Shown one piece after another: positions 22,992-63,773 of a stretch of 64,000 nucleotides of DNA. Numbering within the stretch: the stretch's first letter is position 1; each line of letters opens with the position of its first letter. This DNA comes from Candidatus Niyogibacteria bacterium (lineage in GTDB: Bacteria; Patescibacteriota; Minisyncoccia; JACROR01): contig JACPLO010000010.1 of assembly GCA_016186495.1 (NCBI GenBank), positions 26,905 to 90,904 of the forward strand, written 5' to 3'. A program made the position numbers and the translations under genes. A model generated the notes under the pieces. That model did not search any database and was not told the DNA's origin. It was given only the letters and a program-made list of their open reading frames with translations.

Positions 22992-23073
22992 ATCCCGTTA
23001 GAAAGTTCGCAATTTATGTCAAAAGAGACTAAAAAATTAAAAATAGAATCAATTAAGGTTCTTTCAACGGGAT
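22992..23073. mobile_element. MITE-like element, CCGTTAGAAA family (copy 1)
   Basis: ATCCCGTTAGAAAG at the left end, CTTTCAACGGGAT at the right (imperfect TIR); flanking GATAAATC-like direct duplication; intergenic. Confidence 0.55.
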
Positions 23074-23076
23074 AAA

Positions 23077-23574
23077 TCAATATGGTTTTTGATAGCTGAA
23101 AGCTGTAAGCGCCGTGGCTAAAGCGTCTGTCGCATCATCGTGTTCAGGCGCCGCTTTTAATTTTAAAAGAATTTTAATCATATTCTGGATTTGTTTTTTA
23201 TCCGCCTTGCCGTAGCCGCAGACCGCGACTTTAATTTCCAGCGGCGTATATTCTAAAACCGGCATTTTGGCGATGCTGGCCAGATAAATAGCAATTCCTC
23301 TGGCTTCCGCTACTTGGAGAGCAGTTTTCTGATTGGTGGTAAAAAAAAGTTTTTCAATCGCCATCGCTTCCGGGCGGTGTTTGCTGATTATTTTTTCAAT
23401 TCCTTCGCCGATCCGGCGGATTCGTTCCGGATGGGGTGTTTTGCTTGTTGTTTCAAAACAGCCCATTTCCTCCGCTAAATAATCATTTTTTTTTCGGCTG
23501 ACAACAGCCCAGCCCATTCGTCCGAAACCCGGATCAATCCCGAGAATTTTATTTATCCCGTTAGAAGTTTTCAT
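23077..23574 (-). CDS. ruvC: Holliday junction resolvase RuvC
   Basis: 165 aa; ILGIDPG...; annotated N-terminus MKTSNGINK is encoded by a solo ATCCCGTTAGAAG repeat arm (23565-23577), so the true start may be downstream. Confidence 0.85.
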   Translation of the reverse strand: MKTSNGINKILGIDPGFGRMGWAVVSRKKNDYLAEEMGCFETTSKTPHPERIRRIGEGIEKIISKHRPEAMAIEKLFFTTNQKTALQVAEARGIAIYLASIAKMPVLEYTPLEIKVAVCGYGKADKKQIQNMIKILLKLKAAPEHDDATDALATALTAFSYQKPY

Positions 23575-23676
23575 ATGAACGCGTTTTAATGATTAGAAAG
23601 CCGAAGCCCCGCTCTTTTCGCAAAAATGGCTGGGCGAAGGCGAATTCGCTCGCCTTCAGAAATGATACTATCGGGA

Positions 23677-24210
23677 TTATTCCACATTGGTGTAAATTTC
23701 CTGCACATCATCATGATTATCTAATTCTTCTATCAGCTGGTTAAGCGCGGCGGCGTTTTGTTCGTTCAAAACAAGCGGCGTTTTGGTTTTCCATTGGCCG
23801 TTTATTTTTTCAAACGCCCAAATCACCGCGTCGGTTCCCGCTAGTTTGGCATTATGTTTGGAAAGAATGTGCTTTATTTCTGAAACCAGGCGATTTTTGT
23901 TATCCGTGATCGTTTCAATAATAATCGCCGCGCCGCCCGGGCCATAGGCTTCATATCTGGCATTTTCAAGTTTGGCGCCCGCCAGTTGGCCGCCGCCTTT
24001 TTTAATGGCGCGGGCAATATTTTCCGCGGGCAGATTGGCGGCTTTGGCTTTTTCCACGGCCGCGCGAAGTTCGGGATTAGCATTTGGGTCAGCATTTTTT
24101 CTGGCCGCGATTTGAATTATTTTTGCGAGTTTGCCGAAAATTTGCCCGCGTTTGACGTCGGTTTGCGCTTTTTTATGCTTTATTTGCGACCATTTAGAGT
24201 GTCCGCTCAT
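23677..24210 (-). CDS. yebC: YebC/PmpR-family transcriptional regulatory protein
   Basis: [32 protein letters not shown]... typical YebC N-terminus. Confidence 0.85.
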
Positions 24211-24706
24211 ATTGGTTTAAGATTTGATTTTTCTTTACGTATTCTAAAATAATATTTTTAACTTGCTCGGGATAAGGAATATCTTTAATTATGAAAGATT
24301 GCGCTCCGGCGGTTTGGACCGTAATGTTCCCGAATTTAAAAACAGTGGCGAGAAAATTAGGAATTTCAACGGTGACGTCCTGAACGCGCGAAAGCATAAA
24401 TTCAGAAATCTTTCGTTGAAAAAGTTTTTTTTGCTCAATATCAATAATCCGCTCACTGGTCACAATCCACATATCCAGATAAAAATTCACCCAAAAAATA
24501 AAAGCGACAAGCAAAATAATCAGAACATAAACAGTTAAAATAAACATTGCCAAGACGATGTATTCCGGCAGATAATTGATCGCGGCCGTTAAAATAATAA
24601 CGGCGATTAAAAGCATCACGGCGATCACGGTCATTTTGCCGGCGATGACCAGCCAATGCCGGTGAATGGATAAAATTATTTTTTCTTCCGGTTTTAGATG
24701 GAACAT
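24194..24706 (-). CDS. membrane protein with bacterial PH (YdbS-like) domain
   Basis: 2 TM helices followed by a ...[17 protein letters not shown]...GNITVQTAG bPH_2-like segment. Confidence 0.45.
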
Positions 24707-24709
24707 ATT

Positions 24710-24919
24710 TTAAAGCGGAATTATTTTATTCCATGGCGTTAAAAAAAAGAGCAGAGCGGAAATTATCATAAATATAACAATCGCTCCCAGAAAAATATTA
24801 ATAACCCAGCGATATTTGTCTTGCGGCAGGATATATTGATTGATATTCCAAAAAATCGCGATAATAAATAAAATATAAAATATTATAAATAAAATATAAG
24901 CGATCAGGGGAATAATCAT
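24710..24919 (-). CDS. small membrane protein
   Basis: 69 aa, two hydrophobic helices; 4-bp overlap with ruvB stop. Confidence 0.3.
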   Translation of the reverse strand: MIIPLIAYILFIIFYILFIIAIFWNINQYILPQDKYRWVINIFLGAIVIFMIISALLFFLTPWNKIIPL

Positions 24920-25974
24920 AATAATTCAGGCTGATTGTTTTTAAGCGGGATTTTGCCGAGATGTTTGAAAGCTTGCGGCGTGGCAAGGCGGCCGCGCGAG
25001 GTTCTTTCAATAAAACCCAGTTGGATCAGATACGGTTCATAGACTTCTTCAATAGTTTCCGCTTCTTCGGAAAGGGAAGCGGCAATGGTTTTTACGCCCA
25101 CCGGGCCGCCGTTGAATTTTTCAATAATGGCTTTAAGAATTTGGCGGTCGTGCGCTTCCAGCCCTTTTTCGTCAATTTCCAAAAGTTTTAACGCGGCAGA
25201 AGCTTCTTTAACGGTAATTTCGGTTATTTTATTGACTTGAGAATAATCCCTGACGCGTTTTAAAAGACGGTTAGCCACCCGGGGCGTGCAGCGGGAACGG
25301 TCGGCGATAAATTCAGCCGCTTCCTGAATCAGGTTTATTTTAAGAATTTTGGCGGAGCGGGAGACGATTTCTTTCATTTCTTTCTGGTTGTAAAAATTAA
25401 GGCGAAAACTGCCGCCGGAAAATCTGGAGCGCAAAGGAGAAGAAAGAAGAGAAATGCGGGTTGTGGCGCCGATCAGAGTAAAAGCCGGCAGCTCCAATTG
25501 AATGGAGCGCGCCGAAGGGCCTTTGCCGATGATAATATCCAAACTGCGGTTTTCCATCGCCGGATAAAGAATTTCTTCCACTGTTTTGTTTAAGCGATGA
25601 ATTTCATCAATAAACAAAATATCGCCTGTTGACAGATTAGTCAAAAGGGAGGCTAAATCTCCCACCCGTTCAATCGCCGGGCCGGAAGTGATTTTAATCG
25701 GCGAGCCGGTTTCTTTGGAAATCAGATGGGCAATGGTGGTTTTTCCCAAACCCGGGGGGCCGTAAAAGAGCAGATGTTCAATGCAATCTCCGCGTTCTTG
25801 AGCCGCTTGGATGAGAATTTTTAAATTATTTTTAATTGTTTCTTGGCCGATATATTCATTCCAGCGCCGGGGACGAAGAGTTAAATCCAGATTTTCATCC
25901 TCATTTGTTTGTTTGGGCGCTATGGTTGAGCTTGACATATTTTTATTATTAATATATAATGCCTCAAAAAGCAA
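24916..25974 (-). CDS. ruvB: Holliday junction branch-migration ATPase RuvB
   Basis: GPPGLGKTT Walker A; RuvB C-terminal winged helix; 352 aa. Confidence 0.9.
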   Translation of the reverse strand: MLFEALYINNKNMSSSTIAPKQTNEDENLDLTLRPRRWNEYIGQETIKNNLKILIQAAQERGDCIEHLLFYGPPGLGKTTIAHLISKETGSPIKITSGPAIERVGDLASLLTNLSTGDILFIDEIHRLNKTVEEILYPAMENRSLDIIIGKGPSARSIQLELPAFTLIGATTRISLLSSPLRSRFSGGSFRLNFYNQKEMKEIVSRSAKILKINLIQEAAEFIADRSRCTPRVANRLLKRVRDYSQVNKITEITVKEASAALKLLEIDEKGLEAHDRQILKAIIEKFNGGPVGVKTIAASLSEEAETIEEVYEPYLIQLGFIERTSRGRLATPQAFKHLGKIPLKNNQPELL

Positions 25975-26180
25975 AATCCGGTTGTTATTATTCAGCGATT
26001 ATTTAGTTAGCGCTTTAAAGTCTCTAGGCGATATTCCGTTTTTAACGGAATTGGGATTTTCTTTAAAGGGCAATTTGGCGCCATGTTTTACATGGAGAGC
26101 TGGACTGTTTCTTTGGGATGATTCTATCTTATGGTTTTAATCATTTAGTATATTGCCTAGAGACTTAAACGCGTTATCCG

Positions 26181-26352
26181 CCTATTGCCTCGTGCCATTC
26201 GGCACATCGGCAATTTTTTGCTTTCAGCGAAAATCGGATAAAAAACAAAGCAGTTTGCTTTTTACCACCTATTGCCTCGTGCCATTCGGCACATCGGCAA
26301 TTTTTTGCTTTCAGCAAAAATCAGATAAAAAGCAAAGCAGTTTGCTTTTTAT
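26181..26352. repeat. 2 x 87-bp tandem repeat, each unit with two hairpins (GTGCCATTCGGCAC; AAAAAGCAAAGCAGTTTGCTTTTT)
   Basis: units 26181-26267 and 26268-26352 differ at ~5 positions; shares the CAAAGCAGTTTG hairpin core with the 159-bp tRNA-Leu-associated repeats. Confidence 0.7.
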
Positions 26353-28019
26353 CCCAACACTCTTTCTAATTCTTCCAAACTGCTTTTTCCCGCTAAAACT
26401 TTAAGCGCCGCGTCTTGCCCCATCGTCATCATTCCCTGTTTTTGGGCGATTTTTTTAAATTCTGATTCCAGCGGCATCGGGCCTAAAATAACGCGCTCGG
26501 TTTCGTCATCCACCCGGAAAGCTTCAAAGACGCCGACTCTTCCTTTATAGCCGGTTTGATTGCAAAGTTCGCAGCCCACGGCTTTAAACAGAAAAAGATT
26601 TTTAAAATCCGGTTTTTTTATGTCTGCCGGCAGATCAGCGAGAATTTTTTCCAGCCGCGCTTTTTCTTCGGCGCCGGCTTTTACTTTCTTTTTACATTGT
26701 TGGCAAAGCGTTCTAATAAGGCGCTGGGCCATGGCCATGGTAATCGCCGGCGCGACAATGTTGGGTTTAGCGCCGATGTCAATCAGGCGGGGAATGGTGC
26801 CAAAAGCGTTATTGGTGTGGAGCGTGGAAAAAACCAAATGGCCGGTCAGCGCGGCGTTAAGCGCGGTGCGGGCGGTTTCCAAATCCCTGATTTCTCCCAC
26901 TAAAATAACATCGGGGTCCTGGCGCATAATCGCGCGCAAAGCAGTGGAAAAATCATAACCCTTGTCAAAATTAACTTGAGATTGGCTGATGCCTTCAATA
27001 TGGTATTCTATCGGGTTTTCAATAGTGATAATTTTAATATCCGGCGTAAGAACTTTTTTAATAAAAGCGTAAAGCGTGGTGGTTTTTCCCGAGCCGGTGG
27101 GGCCGGTGGTTAAAATCATTCCGTTCGGCCTTTTGATTTCTTTTTCCATTATTTTCAGCAAGTTTTCCTGCATGCCTAAATTTTCAAAAGAAATAGAGAT
27201 GGTTTTAGGATGGAGGATTCTCATAACGATTGTTTCCCCGTAGGCGCTGGGCAGGACGGAAACCCTTACTTCCACATCCAGATCTTTTATTTTTATGGTA
27301 AAGCGTCCGTCTTGGGCGCGATCAGAAACGTTTAATTTAAGTTTGGCGATTAATTTAAGGCGGGACAGCAAGAGCCGATAAATAAAAAAAGAAAAATCAA
27401 TCACGTTATAAAGCATGCCGTCCAGCCGGAATCTCAAGCGGACTTGTTCTTCTTGCGGTTCAAGATGGATGTCCGAGGCTTCCAGAGCGTAAGCGCCGGC
27501 CAAAATTACTTCCGCGATGTTTGATATTTTTTGAACTTCTTTGGCGTTGAAAAGAGGAGTCAGAATTTTTTGCAGATCAGAAATGTTTTTAATTTCTTTA
27601 AGGTATGTTTCAAGATTTTGAGAAGAGATGCTGATCAGGCCCGCGGAAACAGCTTCAAATTTTGGAATTTCTTCGTATTTTCCCCAAGCTCTTTTTAAGC
27701 TGTTTTCGGAAACCAAAAAAAGCCGGCTTTGGTATAATTCTTTTTTAAGATTTTCCAAAATCGCCTTGGTCAGAGGAAGTTCCGGGTTTTTTACGGCTAC
27801 GCTTATTTTTTTGCCCGTTTTTTGAAAAATCGCCAATTGGCCGTCGCGCGCTTCTTTTTCCGGAATGATTTTTAAAGCGTCTATTTCAATGGTTATCCGG
27901 GAAAGATCGGCGTAAGGCAAGCCATATTTTTGAGAAAGAATTTGCGCTAAATCTTCCGCTTCCTTTTTTTTTATTTCTTTTAGTTTTTCTTCTCTTTTTT
28001 CCGCGAGATTATTGTTCAT
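26349..28019 (-). CDS. pilB: type IV pilus / type II secretion assembly ATPase (GspE/PilB family)
   Basis: 556 aa; Walker A GPTGSGKTT; tetracysteine CxxC...CxxC motif near C-terminus; N-terminal GspE_N-like region. Confidence 0.85.
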   Translation of the reverse strand: MNNNLAEKREEKLKEIKKKEAEDLAQILSQKYGLPYADLSRITIEIDALKIIPEKEARDGQLAIFQKTGKKISVAVKNPELPLTKAILENLKKELYQSRLFLVSENSLKRAWGKYEEIPKFEAVSAGLISISSQNLETYLKEIKNISDLQKILTPLFNAKEVQKISNIAEVILAGAYALEASDIHLEPQEEQVRLRFRLDGMLYNVIDFSFFIYRLLLSRLKLIAKLKLNVSDRAQDGRFTIKIKDLDVEVRVSVLPSAYGETIVMRILHPKTISISFENLGMQENLLKIMEKEIKRPNGMILTTGPTGSGKTTTLYAFIKKVLTPDIKIITIENPIEYHIEGISQSQVNFDKGYDFSTALRAIMRQDPDVILVGEIRDLETARTALNAALTGHLVFSTLHTNNAFGTIPRLIDIGAKPNIVAPAITMAMAQRLIRTLCQQCKKKVKAGAEEKARLEKILADLPADIKKPDFKNLFLFKAVGCELCNQTGYKGRVGVFEAFRVDDETERVILGPMPLESEFKKIAQKQGMMTMGQDAALKVLAGKSSLEELERVLG

Positions 28020-28039
28020 ACGCTTGATTAAATAATAAT

Positions 28040-29128
28040 CTAATCCGAGTTCTTTAACAATTGGCGCAAGTTTTTTTCCGCGGCGGAAAAATTCGGATAA
28101 TCAGGCAAGCGGATGAAATTATTTTGAGGTTTTAAGCCGAGTTTTCGGCTTAAAAAAGAAAATCCGTTTTCGCTTCGGCAATACAGCAATCCTTTAACTT
28201 CTCCTTTTTCTTTCCAAAGCAGAAAATGACGGTCTTTTTCGGCGATTACCCGGTTGAAAGATTTGACTAAAGAAGAGAATAACTCTAAAGACGGCTGGGT
28301 GTTGGTTTTTTGAAAATCCTGTTCGGTAAAAAAAGTCCAAGCGGCGTTTGTTTTTTCATCGGCGTAAGTGCGGGCCAAAGCCCGGCCTAAAAATTGGTTG
28401 GCGGCTGGCCGGGAAAACTGTATTTTTTTTATCGTTTCTTTGTCGGCGCCATTTTCTAAAAATGTTCCGGCTAAGTCCAAAATTTCCTTAGAGGTATTTT
28501 TATTAAAATTTTCCGTTTCCACGATCAGGCAGGCAAAAAGCAAAGTGGCGATTATTTTATTTTGGCAGATTTCTTTTCCCAGCAGTCCGATCAATTCGTT
28601 TATTTTTTGGATTAAAGAATAAGAATGGTCAGGCGAAATAAGAACGATATTTTCTTTGGTTGGCCAGGATTGTTTGTTTTGGATATTTTCCAATTCTTCT
28701 TCTTTTTCAAAAAAAGCAAAAATTGCTTCCGGCGCCGGCATTATTTTTTGGATGGAAATTTCTTGAGAATTTATCTCGCCGGATTTCGGGGTAATGGAAA
28801 AAACGAGAAAATCATCCTCTTCATCATAGCTGGCTTCGGCGATGCCGTTTTTTTTTGGAATTTTTATTTTCAACGTCGGCGTTATCGCGGATTTTTCAGA
28901 ATTTGGCAAAGAAATTATTTCTTGCCATTTTAATTTTAAATCCGTTGATTTTTCTTCGCCGTTAATTACATTCTTTCCGGCGTTTTCCAAAGCTAAACGC
29001 AAAGCTTCTTTAGCTAAAAATTCTTCTTCTCGGGGATTTGGCCGCAAGAATAATTTAAAATTTTTTTTGTTTAAGATAGTTTTTATTTTTTTGAGTTTTT
29101 CGCCGTCCATTGCGGTTATTTTTAACAT
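28040..29128 (-). CDS. hypothetical protein upstream of pilB in the same operon
   Basis: 362-aa ORF; no confident motif. Confidence 0.35.
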   Translation of the reverse strand: MLKITAMDGEKLKKIKTILNKKNFKLFLRPNPREEEFLAKEALRLALENAGKNVINGEEKSTDLKLKWQEIISLPNSEKSAITPTLKIKIPKKNGIAEASYDEEDDFLVFSITPKSGEINSQEISIQKIMPAPEAIFAFFEKEEELENIQNKQSWPTKENIVLISPDHSYSLIQKINELIGLLGKEICQNKIIATLLFACLIVETENFNKNTSKEILDLAGTFLENGADKETIKKIQFSRPAANQFLGRALARTYADEKTNAAWTFFTEQDFQKTNTQPSLELFSSLVKSFNRVIAEKDRHFLLWKEKGEVKGLLYCRSENGFSFLSRKLGLKPQNNFIRLPDYPNFSAAEKNLRQLLKNSD

Positions 29129-29163
29129 TTAGCGCCGTGTTTTTCAAGATAAAAAATGATAAG

Positions 29164-29628
29164 ATGAAATTGATGAAAGAAATAAAAATTATCACCAAAA
29201 AAACCAAAGAAACTCAAATTTTGGCCGGATTTTTGGCTCAGGAATGTTTAAAGGTTTCTTTGGGAAAAAGGGCGTTAGTCATCGGCTTGGAAGGCGAATT
29301 AGGCGCAGGAAAAACTTATTTCGTCAAAGGATTTGCCGAAGGTTTAGGCGTTAAGGAAACAGTGGTCAGCCCGACTTTTGTTTTGCTTAAAATTTTTAAA
29401 CTATTCCGAAAAAAATTCAAACAGCTTATCCATATTGACGCTTATCGGGTAAATTTCAGAAAAGAGCTTCAGGCGCTCGGCTGGGAAAAATTCTTAAAAG
29501 ATCCTCAAAATATAATTATCATTGAATGGGCGGATAAAGCGCGCGGAATTTTACCGAAAAATTATCTTCAGGTAAAGTTTAAACATTTTAAGGAAGATGA
29601 GAGAAAAATAATTTTTAAAATAAAATAA
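29164..29628 (+). CDS. tsaE: tRNA threonylcarbamoyladenosine biosynthesis ATPase TsaE
   Basis: LVIGLEGELGAGKTYFVKGFAEGLGV...VSPTF P-loop; start moved to the internal ATG at 29164 (track ORF starts 29110). Confidence 0.7.
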   Translation: MKLMKEIKIITKKTKETQILAGFLAQECLKVSLGKRALVIGLEGELGAGKTYFVKGFAEGLGVKETVVSPTFVLLKIFKLFRKKFKQLIHIDAYRVNFRKELQALGWEKFLKDPQNIIIIEWADKARGILPKNYLQVKFKHFKEDERKIIFKIK

Positions 29629-29629
29629 A

Positions 29630-32017
29630 ATGAAAGAAAAAAAACAAAATATTCTTGTTTTACTTGACGCTCACGCCATTCTTCACCGCGCTTTTCACGC
29701 TTTGCCGGCTTTCACTTCGCCCAACGGGGAGCTGACCGGCGCGCTTTACGGCTTTGCGGCCATGCTTTTGAAAATTATCCGCGAGTTTAAACCGGATTAC
29801 CTGGCGGCTTGCTATGATTTGCCCGTGCCCACTTTCCGCCATATTGCTTACGAGAAATATAAAGGAAAAAGGCCAAAAATGGATGAAGGCCTGGCAATTC
29901 AAATCAACCGCTCGCGCGATATTTTAAAAGTTTTTGGGATTCCTATTTATGACGCGCCGGGTTTTGAAGCGGACGATGTTCTCGGCACAATCACGAAACA
30001 AGCAAATGATCCGAAACTCAAGATTATTGTCGCTTCCGGCGATTTGGATACGCTTCAATTGGTGCGAGGCAAAGATGTTGTCGTTTATACTCTCAAAAAA
30101 GGCATTCAAGACGCGATTGTTTACGATGAGGAAGGAGTAAAGGAGCGATTCGGTTTTTTACCGAAGTTTTTACCGGATTTTAAGGGCCTGAAAGGGGATC
30201 CTTCGGATAATATTTTAGGCATACCCGGCATCGGCGATAAAGGCGCGGCCGAGCTTATTCAAAAATTCGGCGGTTTGGAAGAAATCTACCGGTTTTTAGA
30301 AAAAAACGAAAAGAAATTTTTAGCCGCGGGCTTTAAACCGAGAATCGTAAAATTATTAAAAGAACACAAAGAAGAAGCGTTTTTTTCAAAAGAATTAGCC
30401 GTGATCCGGCGGGATGTGCCGATAAAATTCAGATGGCCGGATTTGGTTTGGAAAAAAAAATACCGTTTTTCTGAAGCGGAAAAACTTTTTCAAGAACTCG
30501 GCTTTAAAAGTTTGCGCGAGCGCTTGCCCGGCCAAAAATCCGCTGGCCAAGATAATTTTTCGTTAAAGGAAATTTCTTCCAAACAGCTTAAAAAGCTGCA
30601 GGTGGCCGCCTGGCTTCTGGATTCCCGCCGCGTTAACAAATCATTGGAAGATATTCTGGAAATTATCGGCGTTCGGTCAGTCAAGGAAGTTGAAAAAATT
30701 TTAGAAGAAAAAATCAAAAAAGAAAACTTGAAAGATTTTTTTGAAAAAACAGAATTGCCGTTAATGGATATTTTGGAGGAAATGCAAAAAACCGGCGTTT
30801 TGATAGACAGCGTTGTTTTGAAGAAACTTTCTTTAAAATACGAAAAAGAAATTACGGGTTTGAAAAAAAAGATTTGGGATTTGGCGGGCCAGGAATTTAA
30901 CGTCAGTTCTCCCCGCCAGCTGGGCGTTATTCTTTTTGATAAGCTGAAAATTTCCGTTAAAAGCATAAAAAAAACCGGCGGCGGCGGCTGGTCCACCGGC
31001 TTTTTGGAGCTTCAAAAATTGCGGCCGCTCCATCCGATCATTGATCTGATTTTAAAACATCGCGAATTGGCAAAATTAAAGACCACTTATTTAGACGCTT
31101 TGCCGAAATTAGCGGATAAAAATTCGCGTCTTCACACCACTTTTAATCAAGCCGGGACAATGACCGGGCGTTTTTCTTCGCAAAATCCGAATTTGCAGAA
31201 TATTCCCGTAAAAAACGAACGCGGAAAAGAGATAAGAAGAGCTTTTATCGCGCCGGCCGGCTGGGTTTTTTTGGCGGCGGATTATTCCCAAATTGAACTG
31301 CGCATTGCCGCTCTTCTTTCCGGGGATAAAATTATGACCGATGCTTTTTTAAAAGGAGATGACATTCATTCCGCCACGGCTTCGGCGATTTTTAACGTTT
31401 CGCCGGATAAAGTGACGGCGCAAATGCGGCGGCAGGCCAAAGTGATAAATTTTGGAATTTTATACGGGATGGGAGTCAGGTCTTTGGCTCAAAATTTAGG
31501 CGTGGCTAAAGAAGAAGCGCAGAAATTTTACGATGAGTATTTCAGCGATTTTTCCGGCATTCGCGAATATATTGAAAAAATAAAAGAGAAAGCCAAGGAA
31601 GACGGCTTTGTTGAGACTTTGTTCGGCCGAAAGCGTTATTTTCCCGAACTTCAAAATTTGCCGCCGTATCTTCATCATGAATTTTTGCGGATGGCGGTGA
31701 ATACTCCGATTCAAGGCACTGCCGCGGATTTTATGAAAATAGCCATGGTGGCGGCGGATCAGGCGATTAAAAAAGATTCTATTTTGCGGGATAAAGTGAA
31801 AATGGTTTTACAAATTCACGACGAACTTTTATTTGAAGTGAAAAAAGAAGTTTTGCCAAAAGCCGCCGAATTGATTAAAAAAGAAATGGAAGGAGTGTCT
31901 AAAAACAAAATTCCTTTTCCGGCGGATATCAGCGCCGGCCCCAATTGGGCGGAAATGAATCCCGTTAGAGATTGCGAGGGCTCACAGCATAAAATCTCTA
32001 ACGGGATGAAAAAATAA
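29630..32017 (+). CDS. polA: DNA polymerase I (5' nuclease + polymerase; reduced proofreading region)
   Basis: 795 aa; motif A DYSQIELR, motif B RRQAKVINFGILYGM, motif C QIHDELLFE; last ~19 aa (NPVRDCEGSQHKISNGMKK) are encoded by an inserted CCGTTAGAGA repeat copy. Confidence 0.9.
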   Translation: MKEKKQNILVLLDAHAILHRAFHALPAFTSPNGELTGALYGFAAMLLKIIREFKPDYLAACYDLPVPTFRHIAYEKYKGKRPKMDEGLAIQINRSRDILKVFGIPIYDAPGFEADDVLGTITKQANDPKLKIIVASGDLDTLQLVRGKDVVVYTLKKGIQDAIVYDEEGVKERFGFLPKFLPDFKGLKGDPSDNILGIPGIGDKGAAELIQKFGGLEEIYRFLEKNEKKFLAAGFKPRIVKLLKEHKEEAFFSKELAVIRRDVPIKFRWPDLVWKKKYRFSEAEKLFQELGFKSLRERLPGQKSAGQDNFSLKEISSKQLKKLQVAAWLLDSRRVNKSLEDILEIIGVRSVKEVEKILEEKIKKENLKDFFEKTELPLMDILEEMQKTGVLIDSVVLKKLSLKYEKEITGLKKKIWDLAGQEFNVSSPRQLGVILFDKLKISVKSIKKTGGGGWSTGFLELQKLRPLHPIIDLILKHRELAKLKTTYLDALPKLADKNSRLHTTFNQAGTMTGRFSSQNPNLQNIPVKNERGKEIRRAFIAPAGWVFLAADYSQIELRIAALLSGDKIMTDAFLKGDDIHSATASAIFNVSPDKVTAQMRRQAKVINFGILYGMGVRSLAQNLGVAKEEAQKFYDEYFSDFSGIREYIEKIKEKAKEDGFVETLFGRKRYFPELQNLPPYLHHEFLRMAVNTPIQGTAADFMKIAMVAADQAIKKDSILRDKVKMVLQIHDELLFEVKKEVLPKAAELIKKEMEGVSKNKIPFPADISAGPNWAEMNPVRDCEGSQHKISNGMKK
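31959..32007. mobile_element. MITE-like element, CCGTTAGA family (short 49-bp copy) inside the 3' end of polA
   Basis: ATCCCGTTAGAGATT ... AATCTCTAACGGGAT perfect inverted repeat; flanked by ATGAAT-like duplication. Confidence 0.55.
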
Positions 32018-32018
32018 T

Positions 32019-32924
32019 ATGATTTATTTGCTTCACGGAAAAGATACTTACCGGAGCCGCCAAAATTTGCGCCAAATTACGCAGAAGTTTTTTGACGAAA
32101 AAAATCTGAAATATCATTTTTTCCGCCTGACGCCTGAAAATTTTAATTCCGCTCTTTTTTTTGATTTAGCGAAAAACCAGACAATGTTCGGTGGAAGATA
32201 TTTGGCGGCCGCCGAAGAATTATTGGCGGATAAAAATTTTGGTTCTTTAATCCTTGAGAATATGCCTATTCTGGCCGAGAGCGAAAACATCTTTGTTTTT
32301 TGGGAAAGGGAATTGGCGGCTGATTTGCTTGAAAAAATAAAAACCCGGGCGAAAAAAACACAAGAATTTTTGCCGCTTTCCGGCGTTAAATTAAAAAATT
32401 GGATTAAGGCGGAATCTAAAAAACTGAATTTTAACGTTTCCGGCGAGATTCTGGAAAATTTAATCCAGCAGCACGGTTCGGATCTTTGGGCGATTAGCCG
32501 GGCATTGGAAATTATCGCGTTGGGCGGAATGTTTAAACAGGAAACGATAAAAAAAGAAAAAGATAAAGCCGCGATGTTTGATTTAACCGACGCTTTTGCT
32601 TCGCGGGATCAAAAAAGAGCAATCTTACTTTTTGAAAAATACCGAAAAATGGGCGTGCCGGCGGAAGATATTTTTTGGCGTCTTTCTTGGCAGATTAAAA
32701 CGCTTTTAGCGGTTAAAAGTTTGGCGGACCAGCCGCTTTCCGAGATTCAAAAACAGACTGGTTTTAAGGAATATCCGATAAAAAAAGCGCTGGCCGCCGG
32801 CGCCGGCTTTAAAAAAGAAGAGTTGAAAAAAATATTCAGAGAATTTTTAACGGCTTATCATCAGTCAAGAATCAGCGCCGCGGAGTTTGATAGCCGCCTT
32901 TACGATATTTTAATCAAACTTTAA
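32019..32924 (+). CDS. holA: DNA polymerase III delta subunit (HolA-like)
   Basis: 301 aa; N-terminal IYLLHGKDTYRSRQNL typical of HolA; position after polA. Confidence 0.6.
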   Translation: MIYLLHGKDTYRSRQNLRQITQKFFDEKNLKYHFFRLTPENFNSALFFDLAKNQTMFGGRYLAAAEELLADKNFGSLILENMPILAESENIFVFWERELAADLLEKIKTRAKKTQEFLPLSGVKLKNWIKAESKKLNFNVSGEILENLIQQHGSDLWAISRALEIIALGGMFKQETIKKEKDKAAMFDLTDAFASRDQKRAILLFEKYRKMGVPAEDIFWRLSWQIKTLLAVKSLADQPLSEIQKQTGFKEYPIKKALAAGAGFKKEELKKIFREFLTAYHQSRISAAEFDSRLYDILIKL

Positions 32925-33171
32925 TGAATTTAGCGAGCCGGGATTTTTTGCGGCTGGCGGTGTTTTTTTTGATTACGCCGCGTTTGGCCGCTTTATCAAT
33001 GGCTTGATAAGCGAGAGAAAGAAGATTTTTAGCTTCTTCGTTTTTTCCTTCCATTTTTAAAAGGCGCGTTTTTTTAACGGATTCTTTCATTGTTTTTTTT
33101 ATTCTTGAATTAAGCGCCTGTCTTTTTTTAGATTGCCTTAAATTTTTTTTAGCGGATTCAATGTTCGGCAT
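32914..33171 (-). CDS. rpsT: 30S ribosomal protein S20
   Basis: MPNIESAKKNLRQSKKRQALNSRIKKTMKES... S20 signature. Confidence 0.85.
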   Translation of the reverse strand: MPNIESAKKNLRQSKKRQALNSRIKKTMKESVKKTRLLKMEGKNEEAKNLLSLAYQAIDKAAKRGVIKKNTASRKKSRLAKFIKV

Positions 33172-33220
33172 AAATGTTAATTTACCTTAATTGGAAATTT
33201 GAGTCAAGATCAATAATAAT

Positions 33221-33255
33221 CCCCGTTAAATTTGCTTCGTAACTATTTAACGGGG
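33221..33255. repeat. 35-bp hairpin CCCCGTTAAAT...ATTTAACGGGG (variant of the CCGTTAGAAA inverted-repeat motif) just upstream of gpmI
   Basis: perfect 11-bp arms read directly. Confidence 0.5.
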
Positions 33256-33267
33256 TAAAATTAAAAA

Positions 33268-34938
33268 ATGCCGAACTTATTAAATTTTTTTCAATCGCTG
33301 AATTTTTTTAAAAAAATCGTTAAAAAAAATCAAGAAAAAAAAACACCGGCGCAAAAGCCTTTTTATCGGCCGGTAACGCTTTTGATTTTAGACGGCTTCG
33401 GCGTTAATGTTTCGGTGCCGGAATCCACTTGGCGCTACGCCAAACGGCCGTCATTTGAAGAATTGGAGAAATATTGGCCTTTTACCGCACTTCAGGCCTC
33501 GGGCATCGCGGTCGGGCTTCCTTGGAATGAGCCGGGGAACAGTGAAGTCGGCCATTTAACGATTGGCGCGGGACGCGCACTCTATCACCATCTGCCGCGC
33601 ATTATCAGCGCGATCAGCGACGGCTCGTTTTTTAAAAATGAAGCGTTTAAGGTGGCGGCGGAACGCGCTAAAGAGCCGGGCCAGAGTCTCCATTTAATGG
33701 GACTTTTTTCTTCCGGTTCGGTCCATGCTTATGCGGAACATCTTTACGCTTTAATGGATTTGGCAAAAAAAGAAAAAATATCCGAAGTCTGGCTTCATCT
33801 TTTTTCAGACGGAAAAGACGCGCCGCCTAAAGAATTTTACGATTTTTTAGGAAAATTCGCTGAAAAATTAAAAGATTATCCCAAAGTCAGGATCAGTTCG
33901 CTTTTAGGACGTTCTTTCGCGATGGATCGGGATGAAAATTGGGATAAAATTAAAATTACTTACCGGCTTTTAACCGAAGGCCGCGGTCAACCGTTTAAAG
34001 ACCCTCTGGTTCACGTTGAAGAATCTTACCGAATGGGAAAAAATGACGCTGATCTTTTACCGGGTTTTTTAGCGGACGAAAATAACCGGCCTTTGGGAAG
34101 AATTAAAGACGGCGATGCGGTGATTTTTTATAATTTTCGGGAAGACAGCGCCCGGGAATTAACCAGTGCTTTTATTAGCGAACAGTTTGACCGGTTTGGA
34201 CGCGAAAGCTGGCTGAAAAATCTTTTATTCGTGACCATGACCGAATATGACAAGCGGTTTTCCGTTAAAGCGGCGTTTCCGTCGCTGGATGTTGAACGGC
34301 CTCTGGCGCGGGTGGTTTCGGAAGCCGGTTTAAAACAGCTTCACATCGCGGAAACGGATAAATACGCCCACATCACTTATTTTTTAAACGGCGGCCGGGA
34401 AAAGCCGTTTTCCGGCGAAGACCGGATTCTAATTCCTTCGTTGCCGGCGGAAAGCTATGATCAACGGCCGGAAATGTCCGCCCGTCAGATCACTGAAGCC
34501 GTGATTAAAAATCTTGAAAATTATGATTTTATCGCCGTGAATTTTGCGAATGGCGATATGGTGGGGCACACGGGGAATTTTGAAGCCACGGTAAAAGCGA
34601 TTGAGGTTTTAGATTTTTCCGTGGGAAAAATCATCGCCAAGGCCCTGGAAGTCGGCGGCGCGGTTTTAATTATCGCGGATCACGGGAACGCCGAGGAAAA
34701 AAGATACCGTTTAACCGGCGAAGAAAGAACCCAGCATACGATCAATCCGGTGCCGTGTTATCTGGCGGCCCCGGGTTTTAAACGAACATCTTCGCGCGCC
34801 GCCGAGGAGATTAGCGGTCATTATCGCAAGATTGGCGGGGTTTTGATTGACGTGGCGCCGACTGTTTTGAATCTTTTAGGATTAAAAGCGCCGCCGGAGA
34901 TGAATGGTGAAAATCTTCTTGATAAAACTTTAAAATAA
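33268..34938 (+). CDS. gpmI: 2,3-bisphosphoglycerate-independent phosphoglycerate mutase
   Basis: 556 aa; RPVTLLILDGFG metal-binding N-terminus, ...ADHGNAEE... C-terminal motif. Confidence 0.85.
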   Translation: MPNLLNFFQSLNFFKKIVKKNQEKKTPAQKPFYRPVTLLILDGFGVNVSVPESTWRYAKRPSFEELEKYWPFTALQASGIAVGLPWNEPGNSEVGHLTIGAGRALYHHLPRIISAISDGSFFKNEAFKVAAERAKEPGQSLHLMGLFSSGSVHAYAEHLYALMDLAKKEKISEVWLHLFSDGKDAPPKEFYDFLGKFAEKLKDYPKVRISSLLGRSFAMDRDENWDKIKITYRLLTEGRGQPFKDPLVHVEESYRMGKNDADLLPGFLADENNRPLGRIKDGDAVIFYNFREDSARELTSAFISEQFDRFGRESWLKNLLFVTMTEYDKRFSVKAAFPSLDVERPLARVVSEAGLKQLHIAETDKYAHITYFLNGGREKPFSGEDRILIPSLPAESYDQRPEMSARQITEAVIKNLENYDFIAVNFANGDMVGHTGNFEATVKAIEVLDFSVGKIIAKALEVGGAVLIIADHGNAEEKRYRLTGEERTQHTINPVPCYLAAPGFKRTSSRAAEEISGHYRKIGGVLIDVAPTVLNLLGLKAPPEMNGENLLDKTLK

Positions 34939-36637: not shown

Positions 36638-36810
36638 CGGGCCATAGTATAATGGCAGTACGCAAGGCTGGCTTTTCAAGTAATTTATCGGGATGTCGTA
36701 TAGTGGCAGTACGCATGCATGGGGTGCATGCAGTCCGAGTTCGATTCTCGGCATCCCGACCAATTACTTGAAAAGTTGCAACTTGGGTTCAATTCCCAGT
36801 GGCCCGACCA
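36638..36810 (+). other. tRNA-like outer halves (acceptor CGGGCCA/TGGCCCG-ACCA; D-arm and T-arm intact) separated by a 13-bp stem enclosing tRNA-Pro
   Basis: 5' part CGGGCCATAGTATAATGGCAGTACG... and 3' part ...TTGGGTTCAATTCCCAGTGGCCCGACCA; CTTTTCAAGTAAT (36672-36684) pairs with ATTACTTGAAAAG (36765-36777). Confidence 0.5.
36689..36762 (+). tRNA. tRNA-Pro (anticodon GGG), encoded CCA
   Basis: CGGGATG acceptor / CATCCCG-A-CCA; anticodon stem CATGC, loop ATGGGGT; T-arm CCGAG-TTCGATT-CTCGG. Confidence 0.75.
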
Positions 36811-36986
36811 TTCAAAATTAAATCAGATTAGAGAAAATCGCGAAGAAAAATGCCTTAAAATCGGCGATTCGTATTTGAATTTAACGCCGCTGATTTTATT
36901 TTTTTGTTTAATCAGCCGCGCGAAGGATTCAACCACATAATCAAAATGTTCTTTGTTGTAGACGCGGCGCGGAATGGCAAGGCGCA
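36805..36986. repeat. 182-bp direct repeat, copy 1 (starts in the tRNA 3' end; carries an orphan copy of the tryptophanase 3' end)
   Basis: ~98% identical to 38690-38871 (3 mismatches). Confidence 0.85.
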
Positions 36987-37244
36987 TTTCTTTGTTTCCT
37001 TTCTTAATTCGATTATTCTTTCTTTAATCCTGATCGGTGTTTCTCTGGGATTAGTTTTTGGCCTCTTTGATTTATTTTCCAGCCCTTCCAATCCGCTTTT
37101 TCTGTAATCAACCAACCAGTATTTAAGCGACCTTTCTGAAAAAGGACACACTCTGACCATATTCTTAATTGATATTTCTTTGTCTAATATCGGTTTAATC
37201 CATCTAAATTTTTCTTCTTTTGTTGATTTGGGCATAGTTTTCAT
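36912..37244 (-). pseudogene. transposase N-terminal HTH fragment (IS481/IS3-type), DDE domain absent
   Basis: FSERSLKYWLVDYRKSGLEGLENKSKRPKTNP resembles transposase HTH; ORF runs out into the direct repeat, no catalytic domain. Confidence 0.4.
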
Positions 37245-37300
37245 ATGCCCTTAGATTATTCAAAAAAGTGCAATATGTGTGTGTAGATTACCGCAAGCAC

Positions 37301-40078: not shown

Positions 40079-41344
40079 TTAATTTAATTTGAGGTTGCCG
40101 TCGGCTTTGAGGGTATTGATATTTTTAACAAATATTTTTTTAAGCGCTTTCAGGCAGCCAACCGCGGCGATCATCGCCGCGTTATCTCCGGCAAATTGGA
40201 TTTCCGGCAGGCGAAGCAATATTTTTGGAAATTTTTTGTTTAATTCTTTTTTAATCTGCTTTCTTAATTCTTGATTAGCGGCCACGCCGCCGCCAAGAAT
40301 GATGGTTTTTGGTTTATATTTCTGGGCGGCTTTTAAGGTTTTAGCGATTAAAACATCAACTGCCGCTTGCTGGAATTCTCGGCAGATTTGAGCTTTTATT
40401 TCGGGCGTTAATTCGGGTAATTTTCTGACAAGATATAAAACTGCGGTTTTTAAACCGGAAAAACTGAAATCAAAATCGCGGGAATCAATCATCGGCCTCG
40501 GCAATTTGATTTGAGGCTGAAGTAATTCTGATTTAGAAATCGCGGTTTTTGCTAAAGCAGAAACCGCGGGTCCGCCGGGATAACCTAATCCTAAAAGTTT
40601 AGCTGTTTTGTCAAAAGCCTCGCCAGCCGCGTCGTCTCGCGTCCGGCCGATCACTTTATATTTAAGAAATTGCTTCATTAAAACCAGTTCCGTATGCCCG
40701 CCGCTGATCAAAAGCGCCAGGGCGGGGAAAGAAATTAAAAATTCTTGTTTGTTCAAGAAAACGGATAAAATATGCCCTTCCAGATGATTGGCCGCGATCA
40801 GCGGTTTTTCCCAGATTAAAGCAAGGGCTTTGGCAAAATTCACTCCGGTCCAAAGCGCGGGCTCAAGTCCCGGTCCGCTGGTTACGGCAATCGCGTCTAT
40901 TTTAGGTTTTTTAATTTTTGAAATCTCTTTAAAAAACTTTTTTAACAATTCTGGTTCGCGTTTTAATATTTTGTTTATGTTATTTTCAGTTTGTTTAGAG
41001 ATTAAAAATTGAGAATTAGAAATCAATAAATTTGATTTCTTTAATGCTTTTTTTAGAACAAGGATTAAATTTGCCTGATGTTCTCTTTTGGCAAGCGACG
41101 GCACTACGCCGCCCCAGGGCGCGTGGATTTTTATCTGTGAAGAAACGATATTGGCTAAAATTTTGAAACGCGGGTTTTTAAAATTGCCCTTTGCTTCTAA
41201 AATTGCCGCTCCGGTTTCATCGCATGATGTTTCAATGGCGAGAATTTTTATCCCGTTAGAAAGTCTTTTTGTTTGGCTTTCTTGCCCAACAATTTTTTTC
41301 TTAACATAATTAGTTGTCTTTCTAACGGGATTTATTCTTTTCAT
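40079..41344 (-). CDS. tsaD: tRNA N6-adenosine threonylcarbamoyltransferase TsaD
   Basis: ILAIETSCDETGAAIL..., HxxGH metal site (HLEGH); annotated N-terminal ~35 aa are encoded by an inserted repeat (41250-41331), true start uncertain. Confidence 0.85.
   Translation of the reverse strand: MKRINPVRKTTNYVKKKIVGQESQTKRLSNGIKILAIETSCDETGAAILEAKGNFKNPRFKILANIVSSQIKIHAPWGGVVPSLAKREHQANLILVLKKALKKSNLLISNSQFLISKQTENNINKILKREPELLKKFFKEISKIKKPKIDAIAVTSGPGLEPALWTGVNFAKALALIWEKPLIAANHLEGHILSVFLNKQEFLISFPALALLISGGHTELVLMKQFLKYKVIGRTRDDAAGEAFDKTAKLLGLGYPGGPAVSALAKTAISKSELLQPQIKLPRPMIDSRDFDFSFSGLKTAVLYLVRKLPELTPEIKAQICREFQQAAVDVLIAKTLKAAQKYKPKTIILGGGVAANQELRKQIKKELNKKFPKILLRLPEIQFAGDNAAMIAAVGCLKALKKIFVKNINTLKADGNLKLN
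41250..41331. mobile_element. MITE-like element, CCGTTAGAAA family (copy inside annotated 5' end of tsaD)
   Basis: ATCCCGTTAGAAAGTC ... GTCTTTCTAACGGGAT inverted repeat (1 mismatch). Confidence 0.55.
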
Positions 41345-41476: not shown

Positions 41477-41496
41477 TGCGAAATAATTGTTTGTTT

Positions 41497-42378: not shown

Positions 42379-42380
42379 AT

Positions 42381-45798: not shown

Positions 45799-45986
45799 AT
45801 TTTTCTTCGGCGGAATTCGGATTACTGAAATTCTAACAAATTTTAGTCTTGAAGAGAATCTTATGAAAATTCTTCTTTTCTGTTTCTAACGGAATCTGGA
45901 ATTTCTTTTTGCCTCGAAAAATCCGTACGATTTGGTCGCCGAGCGAAGCGAGGCGAATCTTTAAAACTTGCAATTTCCTATGTGGT

Positions 45987-49984: not shown

Positions 49985-50056
49985 GCGCGCTTAGCTCAGT
50001 GGTAGAGCATCGCTTTTACACAGCGAGGGCCGGGGGTTCAATCCCCTCAGCGCGCA
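49985..50056 (+). tRNA. tRNA-Val (anticodon TAC)
   Basis: GCGCGCT acceptor, TAGCTCAGTGGTAGAGC, loop TTTACAC, GGTTCAATCC, AGCGCGC-A. Confidence 0.75.
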
Positions 50057-59596: not shown

Positions 59597-59664
59597 AAAT
59601 TATTTAATTTTTAAAAAAGCAATCTGTAACGGATTGCTTTTTTCTTTTTTCGCCGCTATAATGA

Positions 59665-59772
59665 ATCCCGTTAGAAATCAAAACCTTAAAATGTTATTTA
59701 GACCAATAAAATGTTTTATTATTAACCACAGCAGTTTTTAGAAATTTCTAAAGGAACTATTTCTAACGGGAT
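59665..59772. mobile_element. MITE-like element, CCGTTAGAAA family (108-bp copy)
   Basis: ATCCCGTTAGAAAT ... ATTTCTAACGGGAT perfect inverted repeat; ATGAATC-like flanking duplication; intergenic between the Clp-like ATPase and uvrA. Confidence 0.6.
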
Positions 59773-59808
59773 GAATCATTAAATTATTAAACTAATAAAA
59801 CATAATTT

Positions 59809-62721: not shown

Positions 62722-62819
62722 CAAACAGATTTTGTTAAAATTTAAAAAAATAGTAAGATAATATTATTAAGTTTTTTAATAATTTACTTCGATAGAAGTT
62801 TATCAGATAAATACGGAGG

Positions 62820-63617
62820 TTGATATTGGAAAATAATCAGATTGATTTAGATGAAGGGGCGTGGCGCTGGCTTTTTGACAACAGGACGGAAATTGAAATA
62901 GCGATGATTATTAACGCCGTTTGGCTTGATCCGGCGTATAAAATTAATGTTCTAAAATTTGGAAAGGAAATAAAAATAAATAGAAAAGCGGATGGATTGT
63001 TTTTCCGCCATTTTTCGTCGGCGAATAAAAACAGCCGCCATCATCGCCGGCCAAGATCAATCGGCGGCAAGAGCGGCGGTCAAAACGTTATTTTGGTGAA
63101 TCGCGATGATCATTGGGCGTGGCATAAATTATTCCGCAATTTTAGGCCCGATAAAATTGTGGAAAAAATAAACAGAAAATTTCTTTATTTAAATTCCGAT
63201 TATTGTTTTAAGCTTGTTTATTTGGCGGACCCTGAAGCCGGTAATGGCGTGGATAAAGAATCTTTGTTTTGTTGTGAAATATGCGGCGAGTCGTATTTTA
63301 GCGAAATGGAAGCCAGAAAATGCCGGAAACAAGGATGGCTGGCGCCGCGTTTTGCTTGCGGTGAAAGAGTGCTGATAAAAATAAAAGGTTGCTCGCCTCA
63401 AATAGGCACGATCGCGGGTTGGGATAACGCTTTTTCAATTAATTTTCATTTTTATGAAATGTATCTCGTGGAGACGGGGAACGGAGTGATGAAAAATGTG
63501 AATGCCAAGAAAATAAAATATGTTTTGAAAAATAACGGGCGCAGAGAAAAAAGAAAAAAACACGTTGTTTTTTCTAAAAAAGCGTTTAAAAAAGCGATAA
63601 AAAGGAAAAAATTTTAA
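62820..63617 (+). CDS. HNH-like nuclease-domain protein with C-terminal Cys4 zinc ribbon and basic tail
   Basis: TTG start after GGAGGT; SRHHRRPRSIGGKSGGQNVILVNRDDHWAWHKLF fits HH..P.S.GG....N..L.....H...H (HNH without Cys ligands); FCCEICGE...CRKQG...ACGE. Confidence 0.4.
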   Translation: MILENNQIDLDEGAWRWLFDNRTEIEIAMIINAVWLDPAYKINVLKFGKEIKINRKADGLFFRHFSSANKNSRHHRRPRSIGGKSGGQNVILVNRDDHWAWHKLFRNFRPDKIVEKINRKFLYLNSDYCFKLVYLADPEAGNGVDKESLFCCEICGESYFSEMEARKCRKQGWLAPRFACGERVLIKIKGCSPQIGTIAGWDNAFSINFHFYEMYLVETGNGVMKNVNAKKIKYVLKNNGRREKRKKHVVFSKKAFKKAIKRKKF

Positions 63618-63693
63618 GTTTTTAACAAAAATTCTAAAAAGAAGGCGAACCCGCCTTCTTTTTTATTAATGATTGAATTTCAAACCGAAGTTG

Positions 63694-63773
63694 ATCCCGT
63701 TAGAAAGTTAATAATAATTTTATGTTGAAAATATTTAATTATTATAATTTGCAAAGCGAGCTTTCTAACGGGG
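63694..63773. mobile_element. MITE-like element, CCGTTAGAAA family (80-bp copy)
   Basis: ATCCCGTTAGAAAGTT ... AGCTTTCTAACGGGG inverted repeat; intergenic upstream of groES. Confidence 0.55.

Follow-up and report, generated by a model that had tools for sequence, protein, structure and literature searches.

The Rickettsia palindromic elements, or RPEs, are short mobile palindromes that have inserted in frame into various unrelated housekeeping genes of a small genome (PMC10969869). The same 2024 review reports no miniature inverted-repeat transposable element (MITE) that carries a tRNA gene or spans phyla, and the words 'tRNA' and 'phyla' do not occur in it (PMC10969869). The present study concerns a family of short repeats in a 64,000-nucleotide stretch of a Candidatus Niyogibacteria genome (contig JACPLO010000010.1, positions 26,905 to 90,904), the whole of which is called the window below. 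Eight elements bounded by the same 13-bp inverted repeat were recognised, among them one within polA, one within tsaD, and one that carries a complete tRNA gene inside another tRNA gene. An initial annotation, made from the window alone, had proposed a MITE-like family, and this was borne out by the inverted repeats, by target duplications, and by orthologous sites that lack the element; judging from these sequence comparisons, it is close to certain that the repeats are mobile.

In behaviour the elements are closest to RPEs and to bacterial MITEs generally. Like RPEs they are in-frame inserts, here in polA, tsaD and ruvC, and elsewhere in the genes of LigA, ExoIII and PrmC. RPEs, however, are about 100-150 bp long, have a conserved internal sequence, are restricted to Rickettsia and lie inside genes, whereas in the elements described here only the 13-bp ends are conserved, the interior is free, the hosts belong to many phyla and are not Rickettsiales, and insertion is mostly at exact start or stop codons. 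With bacterial MITEs such as Correia/NEMIS, RUP, ERIC and Nezha they share inverted repeats, target duplication, the lack of coding capacity, many copies, effects on the expression of neighbouring genes, and presence/absence polymorphism, but known MITE families are lineage-restricted and share their whole sequence, and neither is true of these elements. The target duplications of known bacterial MITEs are typically TA or 8-9 bp.

The eight elements of the window carry the inverted repeat Y-CCCGTTAGAAA-N / N'-TTTCTAACGGG-R. The exact 11-mer CCCGTTAGAAA was present 8 times in the window, where about 0.03 occurrences are expected, and at up to one mismatch 13 times against 2.1 in shuffled sequence, a count of 13 being reached in none of 100 shuffles; ATCCCGTTAGAAA, at up to two mismatches, gave 16 matches in the window against 3.4 expected. 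The window copies were pooled with copies from other genomes into a set of 160 elements, and alignment of their ends showed the inverted repeat to be exactly 13 bp, from position -1 through position 12. Position -1 is C or T, with the complementary G or A opposite in 94% of elements (52% expected), positions 1-11 are CCCGTTAGAAA, and position 12 can be any base and is complementary between the arms in 86% (38% expected). At position 13 complementarity is at background (34% versus 32%), and changes at positions 10 and 11 are mostly mirrored in the opposite arm. Exact searches of the literature for both 11-mers returned unrelated primer matches only, and keyword searches (MITEs in Patescibacteria, palindromic in-frame elements in the candidate phyla radiation, nested or intron-containing bacterial tRNAs) returned nothing relevant; no account of these elements was met with in the literature that could be searched.

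Between the arms any sequence may be found, from 1 nt to more than 100 nt, and the elements are 24-189 bp long. The sole type of gene seen inside an element was a tRNA gene and, as in MITEs, no element has a transposase gene of its own. Predicted folds were dominated by the arm stem (z -3 to -7), while the interiors were weakly structured. Most interiors (128 of 154) were singletons, and those of the window copies were mutually unrelated, as the initial annotation had correctly stated; in this respect the family departs from a textbook MITE family, whose members share the interior. Interior clusters were mostly of the same genome or within Desulfobacterota, and interior G+C tracked that of the host locus (r = 0.40, p about 1e-6) at an average of 8 points lower. 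Tandem and nested copies were present (L013, L081).

Immediately outside the arms lies a 4-bp direct repeat, exact in 97 of the 160 elements and with one mismatch in a further 22 (74% together). Its consensus is T-N-N-A, most frequently TGAA/TTCA, TAAA/TTTA or TTGA/TCAA, and of 146 elements, 103 have the middle two bases as a direct repeat and 10 as an inverted one. Five clean copies in the window show it directly, so that the short flanking duplications suspected earlier are real: element 1 (80 bp, 22993-23072, no strand assigned) is flanked by TAAA at 22989-22992 and 23073-23076; element 3 (47 bp with a 15-bp perfect stem, 31960-32006) by TGAA at 31956-31959 and 32007-32010; element 5 (80 bp with perfect arms, 41251-41330) by TTTA at 41247-41250 and 41331-41334; element 7 (106 bp with perfect arms, 59666-59771, between a gene for a ClpX-like ATPase and uvrA) by TGAA at 59662-59665 and 59772-59775; and element 8 (79 bp, 63695-63773) by TTGA at 63691-63694 and 63774-63777. 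Even hairpin-only copies of 24-39 bp keep their duplications, which are TTAA in L081, TCAA in L071 and CCAG in L178. Beyond the duplication no conserved position was found in the aligned element ends.

These flanks also bear on a different view of the arms, in which they are half-sites of a recombination site, TTTCTAACGGG-6 bp-CCCGTTAGAAA, with a dif-like 11-6-11 layout, and the elements are small circles that a tyrosine recombinase, Xer-like or other, has integrated. The palindromic layout would suit this, as would the single hexamer shared by two tandem elements in L013 and the recurrence of flank pairs that are not duplications (TTTTAC...GTGAAT three times, CTTG...TGAA seven times). On the host side, however, nothing is conserved beyond position -6, which leaves no binding arm for a partner; only 4 positions, and not 6, form the direct repeat, the outer two behaving as part of the inverted repeat; and the target sequences are diverse. 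The 11-6-11 arrangement was rejected on these flank statistics, and we consider it very unlikely.

Mobility is documented by comparison with relatives at 77-88% protein identity, namely L125 (85% identity in PolA, syntenic with window positions 19366-34748), L180 (77% in TsaD) and L178 (88% in TsaD). L125 lacks elements 1, 2 and 3 precisely; at the site of element 1, which lies 4 nt downstream of the ruvC stop in the window and has a right arm with a 1-nt deletion (CTTTCAACGGG), it reads GGGGATAAAT followed directly by AAAATTTT. L180 has no element at all, and its sites corresponding to elements 3, 4, 5 and 6 are empty. Single copies of the duplication are present at the empty sites. The window is itself the empty site for an insertion into the tRNA-Val(TAC) gene of L178, described below. 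In the stretch compared with L125 there was one copy in that genome versus four in the window, and in relatives whose PolA is 41-56% identical, about 0.45 Mb of sequence contained no canonical element. With none in L180, one in L125 and eight in 64 kb of the window, the family has entered and expanded within this lineage.

The one copy of L125 stands at the site of element 4, a variant hairpin of 35 bp (CCCCGTTAAAT...ATTTAACGGGG, 33221-33255) between rpsT and the iPGM gene. In L125 the site holds a canonical element of about 95 bp with a TAAA duplication, so the hairpin, which the initial annotation had set down as a variant, is a member of the family; the window copy is a shrunken form of the element that L125 carries there. 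Relative to the orthologous copy it has a mirrored 2-nt deletion in both arms, and its fold has a z of -4.3.

Comparison with orthologues also speaks against the repeats being immobile, that is, ancestral coding or regulatory sequence (peptide termini, operator palindromes, RNA processing stems) or a product of wrongly annotated starts. The arms do lie at gene boundaries, the stems are stable, and promoter-like and Shine-Dalgarno-like sites adjoin some copies (L028, L080, L082). Against this, the sequences are precisely absent from orthologous genes of close relatives at polA, ruvC/yebC and tsaD, they are flanked by duplications, their neighbour genes are functionally unrelated, and the ancestral ATG of tsaD is upstream of the insert. 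Such an origin is so improbable that it can be practically discounted.

The consequences for the encoded proteins can be read from the same comparisons. In polA, element 3 with its duplication amounts to 51 nt or 17 codons (NPVRDCEGSQHKISNGM), placed between ...NWAEM and KK*, before the last two codons; the C-terminal addition noticed earlier is therefore present, but as 17 codons two codons before the stop and not as 19 codons added to the end. PolA without the insert ends NWAEMEKII* in L125 and L159 and NWAEMKKIL* in L180, and most PolA relatives align only to query residue about 776. In tsaD, which is on the minus strand, element 5 with its duplication is an 84-nt insert in the 5' end, adding 28 codons after codon 4: MKRI[NPVRKTTNYVKKKIVGQESQTKRLSNGI]KILAIETSCDET. 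It had been taken to supply the first 35 or so codons, a view that did not hold, for the ATG at 41344 is ancestral and was kept upstream of the insert, and the TsaD of L180 (P0122, 77% identity) begins MKKIKILAIETSCDET. A misplaced start, with the element in the 5' untranslated region, is refuted in the case of tsaD, and for polA the question does not arise. P0121, P0123 and L178 carry the same tsaD insert, in which 0 of 26 arm bases and 4 of 54 interior bases have changed, numbers too small to show selection. A separate feature of TsaD (40079-41344) is an internal low-complexity insert of about 55 residues (about residues 97-150), which splits the Pfam match in two, is common to relatives, and is not bounded by arms.

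Between yebC and ruvC lies element 2 (121 bp, 23556-23676), with left arm CCCGTTAGAAG and a right arm decayed to ATACTATCGGG. Its left end had been recorded as a solo arm at 23565-23577; the arm is at 23555-23567 and is not solo. The yebC stop of L125 overlaps the ruvC start (...NVENK*; ATGTGGAAAATAAATAAAATTCTTGGG; ruvC begins MWKINKILGIDPG), whereas in the window yebC ends ...NVE*, its stop (23677-23679, minus strand) adjoining element 2 in the flanking DNA just outside, and ruvC begins MKTSNGINKILGIDPG at an ATG (23574-23572, minus strand) that lies inside the element. The claim that the element supplies the start of ruvC was thus upheld; the RuvC Pfam match runs from residue 10 onward.

Two of the three frames through each arm are open, reading NPVR.../...SNG and PLE.../...LTG, and the recurring NPVR... 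and ...SNG peptides are a result of this. About a fifth of the elements were within long open frames, mostly within 100 nt of one end of the frame. In other phyla, internal in-frame inserts were found in NAD-dependent DNA ligase LigA (in the adenylation domain), ExoIII, an indolepyruvate-oxidoreductase-like (IorA-like) enzyme and PrmC. At 44 of the 260 element ends with enough flank (17%), an ATG or GTG that opens an outward open reading frame (ORF) of at least 100 codons begins at offset 0, while the counts at offsets 1 and 2 were 3 and 2, and offsets 1-39 summed to 35. The rebuilt start codon consists of the last base of the element (A or G) and the TG of the duplication. A stop codon lies within the duplication in 14 of 52 inward neighbouring genes. 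The suggestion that insertion at gene boundaries is tolerated in frame was borne out by these counts and by the PolA and TsaD homologues, which end and start as predicted once the element and one copy of the duplication are removed.

Signals for expression were also found at the element ends. The right copy of the element 8 duplication forms part of a -35 hexamer, that of a promoter TTGACA-16-TAAAAT upstream of groES, and several right flanks read GTTGACA. This promoter is near-consensus, with 11 of 12 matches, and occupies window positions 63774-63801, beginning at the duplication; that groES/groEL lie downstream was seen from L188 (7593-7892). One interior family ends AAGGAG(A/G)G, 13-14 nt upstream of the rebuilt ATG (L028 4316-4391, L080 7195-7270 and L082 1255-1330, the first two from Levyibacteriota and the third labelled Gammaproteobacteria), and may represent a mobile ribosome-binding site.

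Element 6 (110 bp, 41602-41711, plus strand) is the tRNA carrier. Between perfect 13-bp arms, C-CCCGTTAGAAA-C / G-TTTCTAACGGG-G, it has 7 nt, a tRNA-Val(GAC) gene at 41621-41694, and 4 nt, and its predicted RNA fold is an arm helix enclosing a cloverleaf (z = -6.0). Arms around this tRNA gene had been listed by the initial annotation, all six of whose arm pairs were present; what had not been seen is that the whole element stands inside a resident tRNA-Val gene. This resident tRNA-Val(GAC) gene (41569-41788, plus strand), now a pseudogene, is split by element 6 in the anticodon loop, after ...CTTG. Its 5' half (41569-41601) and its 3' end are collinear, nearly base for base, with the intact tRNA-Val(GAC) gene of L180 (3523-3594, complementary strand), and it was this orthologue that identified the resident, which was not called by ARAGORN, nor recovered with an intron search or by brute-force deletion. 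An Rfam scan by E-value of 41300-42000 showed two tRNAs only, and no group I intron. Further damage to the resident gene consists of point changes and of a 37-nt hairpin in the T arm, at 41732-41768 between G53 and T54 (T-CCCGTAGCCAGAC GAA GTCTGTGGTACTGGG-A), whose ends resemble degenerate arms and which may be a second, decayed mini-element. In L178 the outer tRNA-Val(GAC) gene is mostly deleted, while the inner one is conserved.

A second case was found in L178 (ena:ERZ27254767:k141_2747738, 1312-1502), where the orthologue of the tRNA-Val(TAC) gene that is intact in the window (49985-50056) is split in the anticodon loop by T-CCCGTTAGAGA-T, 7 nt, a different tRNA-Val(TAC), 3 nt, and A-TCTCTAACGGG-A. 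Both regions fold as an outer cloverleaf in which the anticodon arm is replaced by the arm helix and an inner cloverleaf (z about -6), and both cassettes belong to the CTTG...TGAA flank class. An arm-bounded tRNA cassette inside a resident gene of the same anticodon has therefore arisen twice, independently. Only such matching cargo may be viable where tRNA genes are single-copy, or there may be some form of targeting. Integrative elements that target tRNA genes and rebuild their 3' end, and the introns and split tRNAs of archaea, likewise involve a tRNA target, with insertion in the anticodon loop and function kept by the incoming sequence. Here, by contrast, a tRNA gene with the same anticodon arrives complete on an element of 110 bp and the resident gene decays; no integrase, bulge-helix-bulge motif or group I intron match was found in the tRNA copies. 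The replacement cassette is the part of the system most likely to be new in kind, and the tRNA-in-tRNA arrangement appears to be new.

Other associations with tRNA genes were seen. In L096 (5181-5263) the CGGG of an arm is also the first four bases of a tRNA-Pro, and in L015 (2011-2102) GG is the first bases of a tRNA-Leu, so that here the element has been absorbed into the acceptor stem. Upstream of element 6, the 3' half of tRNA-Glu (CGGGATTTGAAATCCCGCTAGGGTCA) is present a second time, at 41516-41551, 40 nt downstream of the complete tRNA-Glu gene (41401-41477); a stretch of about 97 nt here is absent from L178.

The family extends well beyond the window. When one genome per species was scanned for exact arm pairs 54-84 nt apart, at least 120 loci were obtained where about 1 is expected by chance, so that the motif pairs are far more frequent than chance in public genomes as well as in the window. 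Taking the labels of the sequence records as host taxa, the loci listed include many classes of Patescibacteria, Planctomycetota (including an anammox lineage), Desulfobacterota/Thermodesulfobacteriota, Omnitrophota, Nitrospirota, KSB1, Edwardsbacteria, and some bins labelled Gamma-proteobacteria or Bdellovibrionales. The same 13-base ends thus occur in at least eight bacterial phyla, and nearly all of the host records are metagenome-assembled genomes (MAGs) from groundwater, sediment or bioreactors. Viral contigs were considered as a reservoir and rejected, with 0 and 3 matches. In L069 (4459-7345), from an uncultured Planctomycetaceae MAG, four elements lie within 3 kb, in nearly every intergenic spacer, and the ATG of a hisA-like gene adjoins an arm directly, which suggests a very high copy number in some Planctomycetota.

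As to mechanism, we think it probable, with some reserve, that these are conventional non-autonomous elements of the MITE type, mobilised in trans by an enzyme for which the IS1380/piggyBac group is the best fit. A protein encoded elsewhere would recognise both ends and make a staggered 4-bp cut at T-N-N-A, which would then be duplicated. The favoured targets TGAA, TAAA and TTGA would be the sequences of ATGAA start contexts, of TAA and TGA stops, and of TTGACA promoter boxes. As the last base of the element and the TG of the duplication rebuild ATG or GTG, insertions at start and stop codons would survive selection in compact genomes, and because two of the three arm frames are open, copies whose length is a multiple of three would persist as in-frame peptide inserts. 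The interior can be gene cargo, and a tRNA-Val copy can sit in the anticodon loop of a resident gene because it supplies the replacement.

The sequences themselves show how the unit is built and duplicates its target, the sites that lack it, its effects on coding, its host range and the replacement of tRNA genes. The choice of enzyme family is inferred from the 4-bp duplication at T..A and from ends that start CC(C), the arms beginning (Y)CCCG. To our knowledge IS1380/piggyBac is the only family to combine a duplication of 4-5 bp, as IS1380 has, with CC(C) ends, and the end of T. ni piggyBac is CCCTAGAAAGATA, compared with CCCGTTAGAAAGT in these elements. The ends of piggyBac start with CCC and its duplication is TTAA, IS1380 being its prokaryotic relative (PMC10813416). 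Members of IS1380 capture adjacent DNA by means of surrogate ends (PMC9330008), and capture of this kind would explain both the unrelated interiors and the gene cargo.

Several observations weigh against this conventional reading. A transposase gene bounded by these arms was found neither in 1.4 Mb of loci nor in the window. The ends of ISEcp1 (CCTAGATTCTACGT / CCTAAATTCCACGT) share only CC and TAGA with the arms, and co-varying end positions are not a known property of the IS1380 family. Mostly unrelated interiors, even inside the window, are unusual for a recently expanded MITE family, and a 13-bp end identical across at least eight phyla is a stronger conservation than is usual for the ends of insertion sequences (ISs). 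Twelve elements have a 2-bp repeat only, mostly with CTTG before and TGAA after the element, a class that numbered 5 on average and at most 12 in 2,000 shuffling trials, and 29 more have mixed flanks drawn from the same vocabulary. Finally, a DDE transposase that reads sequence does not predict the mirroring of the variable positions -1 and 12 between arms, the return to background at position 13, the symmetric variants at positions 10 and 11, or the mirrored deletions of element 4.

Further searches for the enzyme were made among the loci. No ORF with PF13701 (DDE_Tnp_1_4) or of piggyBac type was near any element among the loci examined, and all-against-all clustering of 1,430 ORFs near elements revealed no enriched mobile-element gene. 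Long-range arm pairs, both those with matching duplications and those lacking them, were examined as autonomous elements and rejected, having housekeeping genes between two small elements (acetate kinase in L069, a glycosyl hydrolase in L061), as was a large inverted duplication in L007, which encloses a secreted protein and no transposase. A protein search seeded with ISEcp1 recovered relatives at 83% identity or more only, distant IS1380 members being out of its reach. Two of these proteins, P0057 and P0062, are transposases about 86% identical to that of clinical ISEcp1 in Labilibaculum and ANME-2 archaeon MAGs, and may reflect wide spread or contamination.

The co-variation of the arms would be more readily understood if the ends were read as a folded, single-stranded hairpin with a 13-bp stem and any loop, by a structure-specific enzyme, either a Y1/HUH transposase like those of the RAYT and IS200 groups or a tyrosine recombinase that treats the ends as IntI treats attC. 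A repeat of exactly 13 bp with mirrored variable positions and background pairing from position 13, the mirrored deletions of element 4, the unconstrained loop, the hairpin-only copies of 24-39 bp that keep their duplications, and the dominance of the arms in predicted folds would all follow; the limit at 13 bp, the co-variation and the mirrored deletions argue that the arms must pair, and not that they are two independent sites for protein binding. Three of the 120 loci listed contain a Y1_Tnp gene. Those ORFs (L032, L100, L119) have no adjoining arms, however, and three in 120 windows of eight kb is about the chance rate. HUH transposition gives no target duplication and uses a fixed target oligonucleotide, whereas here the tetranucleotide varies and the arms are constant, and hairpin-only copies can also arise by shrinkage in place, as in element 4. 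Recognition of this kind is the chief competing view, and on balance we consider it unlikely.

Likeness to the known hairpin systems is also partial. With REP/REPIN sequences (repetitive extragenic palindromes) and their RAYT enzymes the elements have in common hairpin palindromes with preserved symmetry, hundreds of dispersed copies, and mobilisation in trans, but a REP has a conserved tetranucleotide of the GTAG type and lacks a target duplication, and REPs flank the RAYT gene; the present elements show none of these features, and no tetranucleotide is conserved in them beyond T..A. The attC sites of integrons are likewise palindromic but imperfect, their outer stem being conserved and their loop ranging from a few to about 100 nt, and are read as a folded single strand; the GTTAGA and TCTAAC of the arms resemble the attC boxes GTTRRRY and RYYYAAC. 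The order of these boxes is reversed on both strands, however (GTTAGA first, TCTAAC second), there are no cassettes and no attI, and the elements are dispersed, with duplications. A broader possibility, which we hold tentatively and judge less probable than not, is an undescribed class of hairpin-ended element with a co-varying 13-bp stem, recognition by structure, hosts in at least eight phyla, and two lifestyles, the rebuilding of start and stop codons and the replacement of tRNA genes. If such a class exists, its tRNA cassette would kill and replace the resident gene, and so would be selfish and could not be lost.

Some further features of the window were noted. A single degenerate arm, TTTCTAACGGAAT, lies at 45883-45895 on the minus strand and has no recognisable partner. 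The genes are housekeeping genes around dnaA and dnaN, together with a type IV secretion-like cluster. One ORF is 100% identical to a protein from a Candidatus Niyogibacteria MAG, and those TsaD homologues that bear a taxon name belong to Patescibacteria. dnaA (16108-17475) and dnaN (17760-18860) are in the stretch of lowest GC (0.32; 15500-20000), the cumulative GC skew has its minimum at about 20 kb, and 15500-20000 is probably the replication origin region. The type IV secretion/conjugation-like cluster (5539-14208) includes TrbL/VirB6-like, PrgI and TraG/VirB4-like ATPase genes and a T4SS pilin gene, and an ORF for a 23S rRNA intervening-sequence protein is at 2056-2421. Adjoining tRNA-Pro (region 36763-37279) is a truncated HTH_28/HTH_32 ORF (IS481-type N-terminal; 36912-37244, minus strand), with a duplicated partial tRNA 3' end at 36776-36810; synteny with L159 and L180 breaks there, and the region looks like the scar of an integrated element. 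The ORF was considered as a transposase relic and rejected, its homologues, which are common in Patescibacteria, being stand-alone short ORFs (66-193 aa) with no arms nearby.

If these conclusions are correct, a single mobile element of very small size has passed between phyla of uncultivated bacteria, among them the reduced Patescibacteria, which are regarded as having little mobile DNA. It would reshape gene termini, add peptides to essential enzymes, and move promoters and ribosome-binding sites, and annotation pipelines would mis-call starts and extensions at its sites. The co-varying 13-bp ends point to an enzyme whose rule of recognition has yet to be described. By way of the tRNA-in-tRNA arrangement, bacterial tRNA genes could be replaced and tRNAs transferred horizontally, and the arrangement is a concrete case of cargo that makes an otherwise lethal insertion viable.

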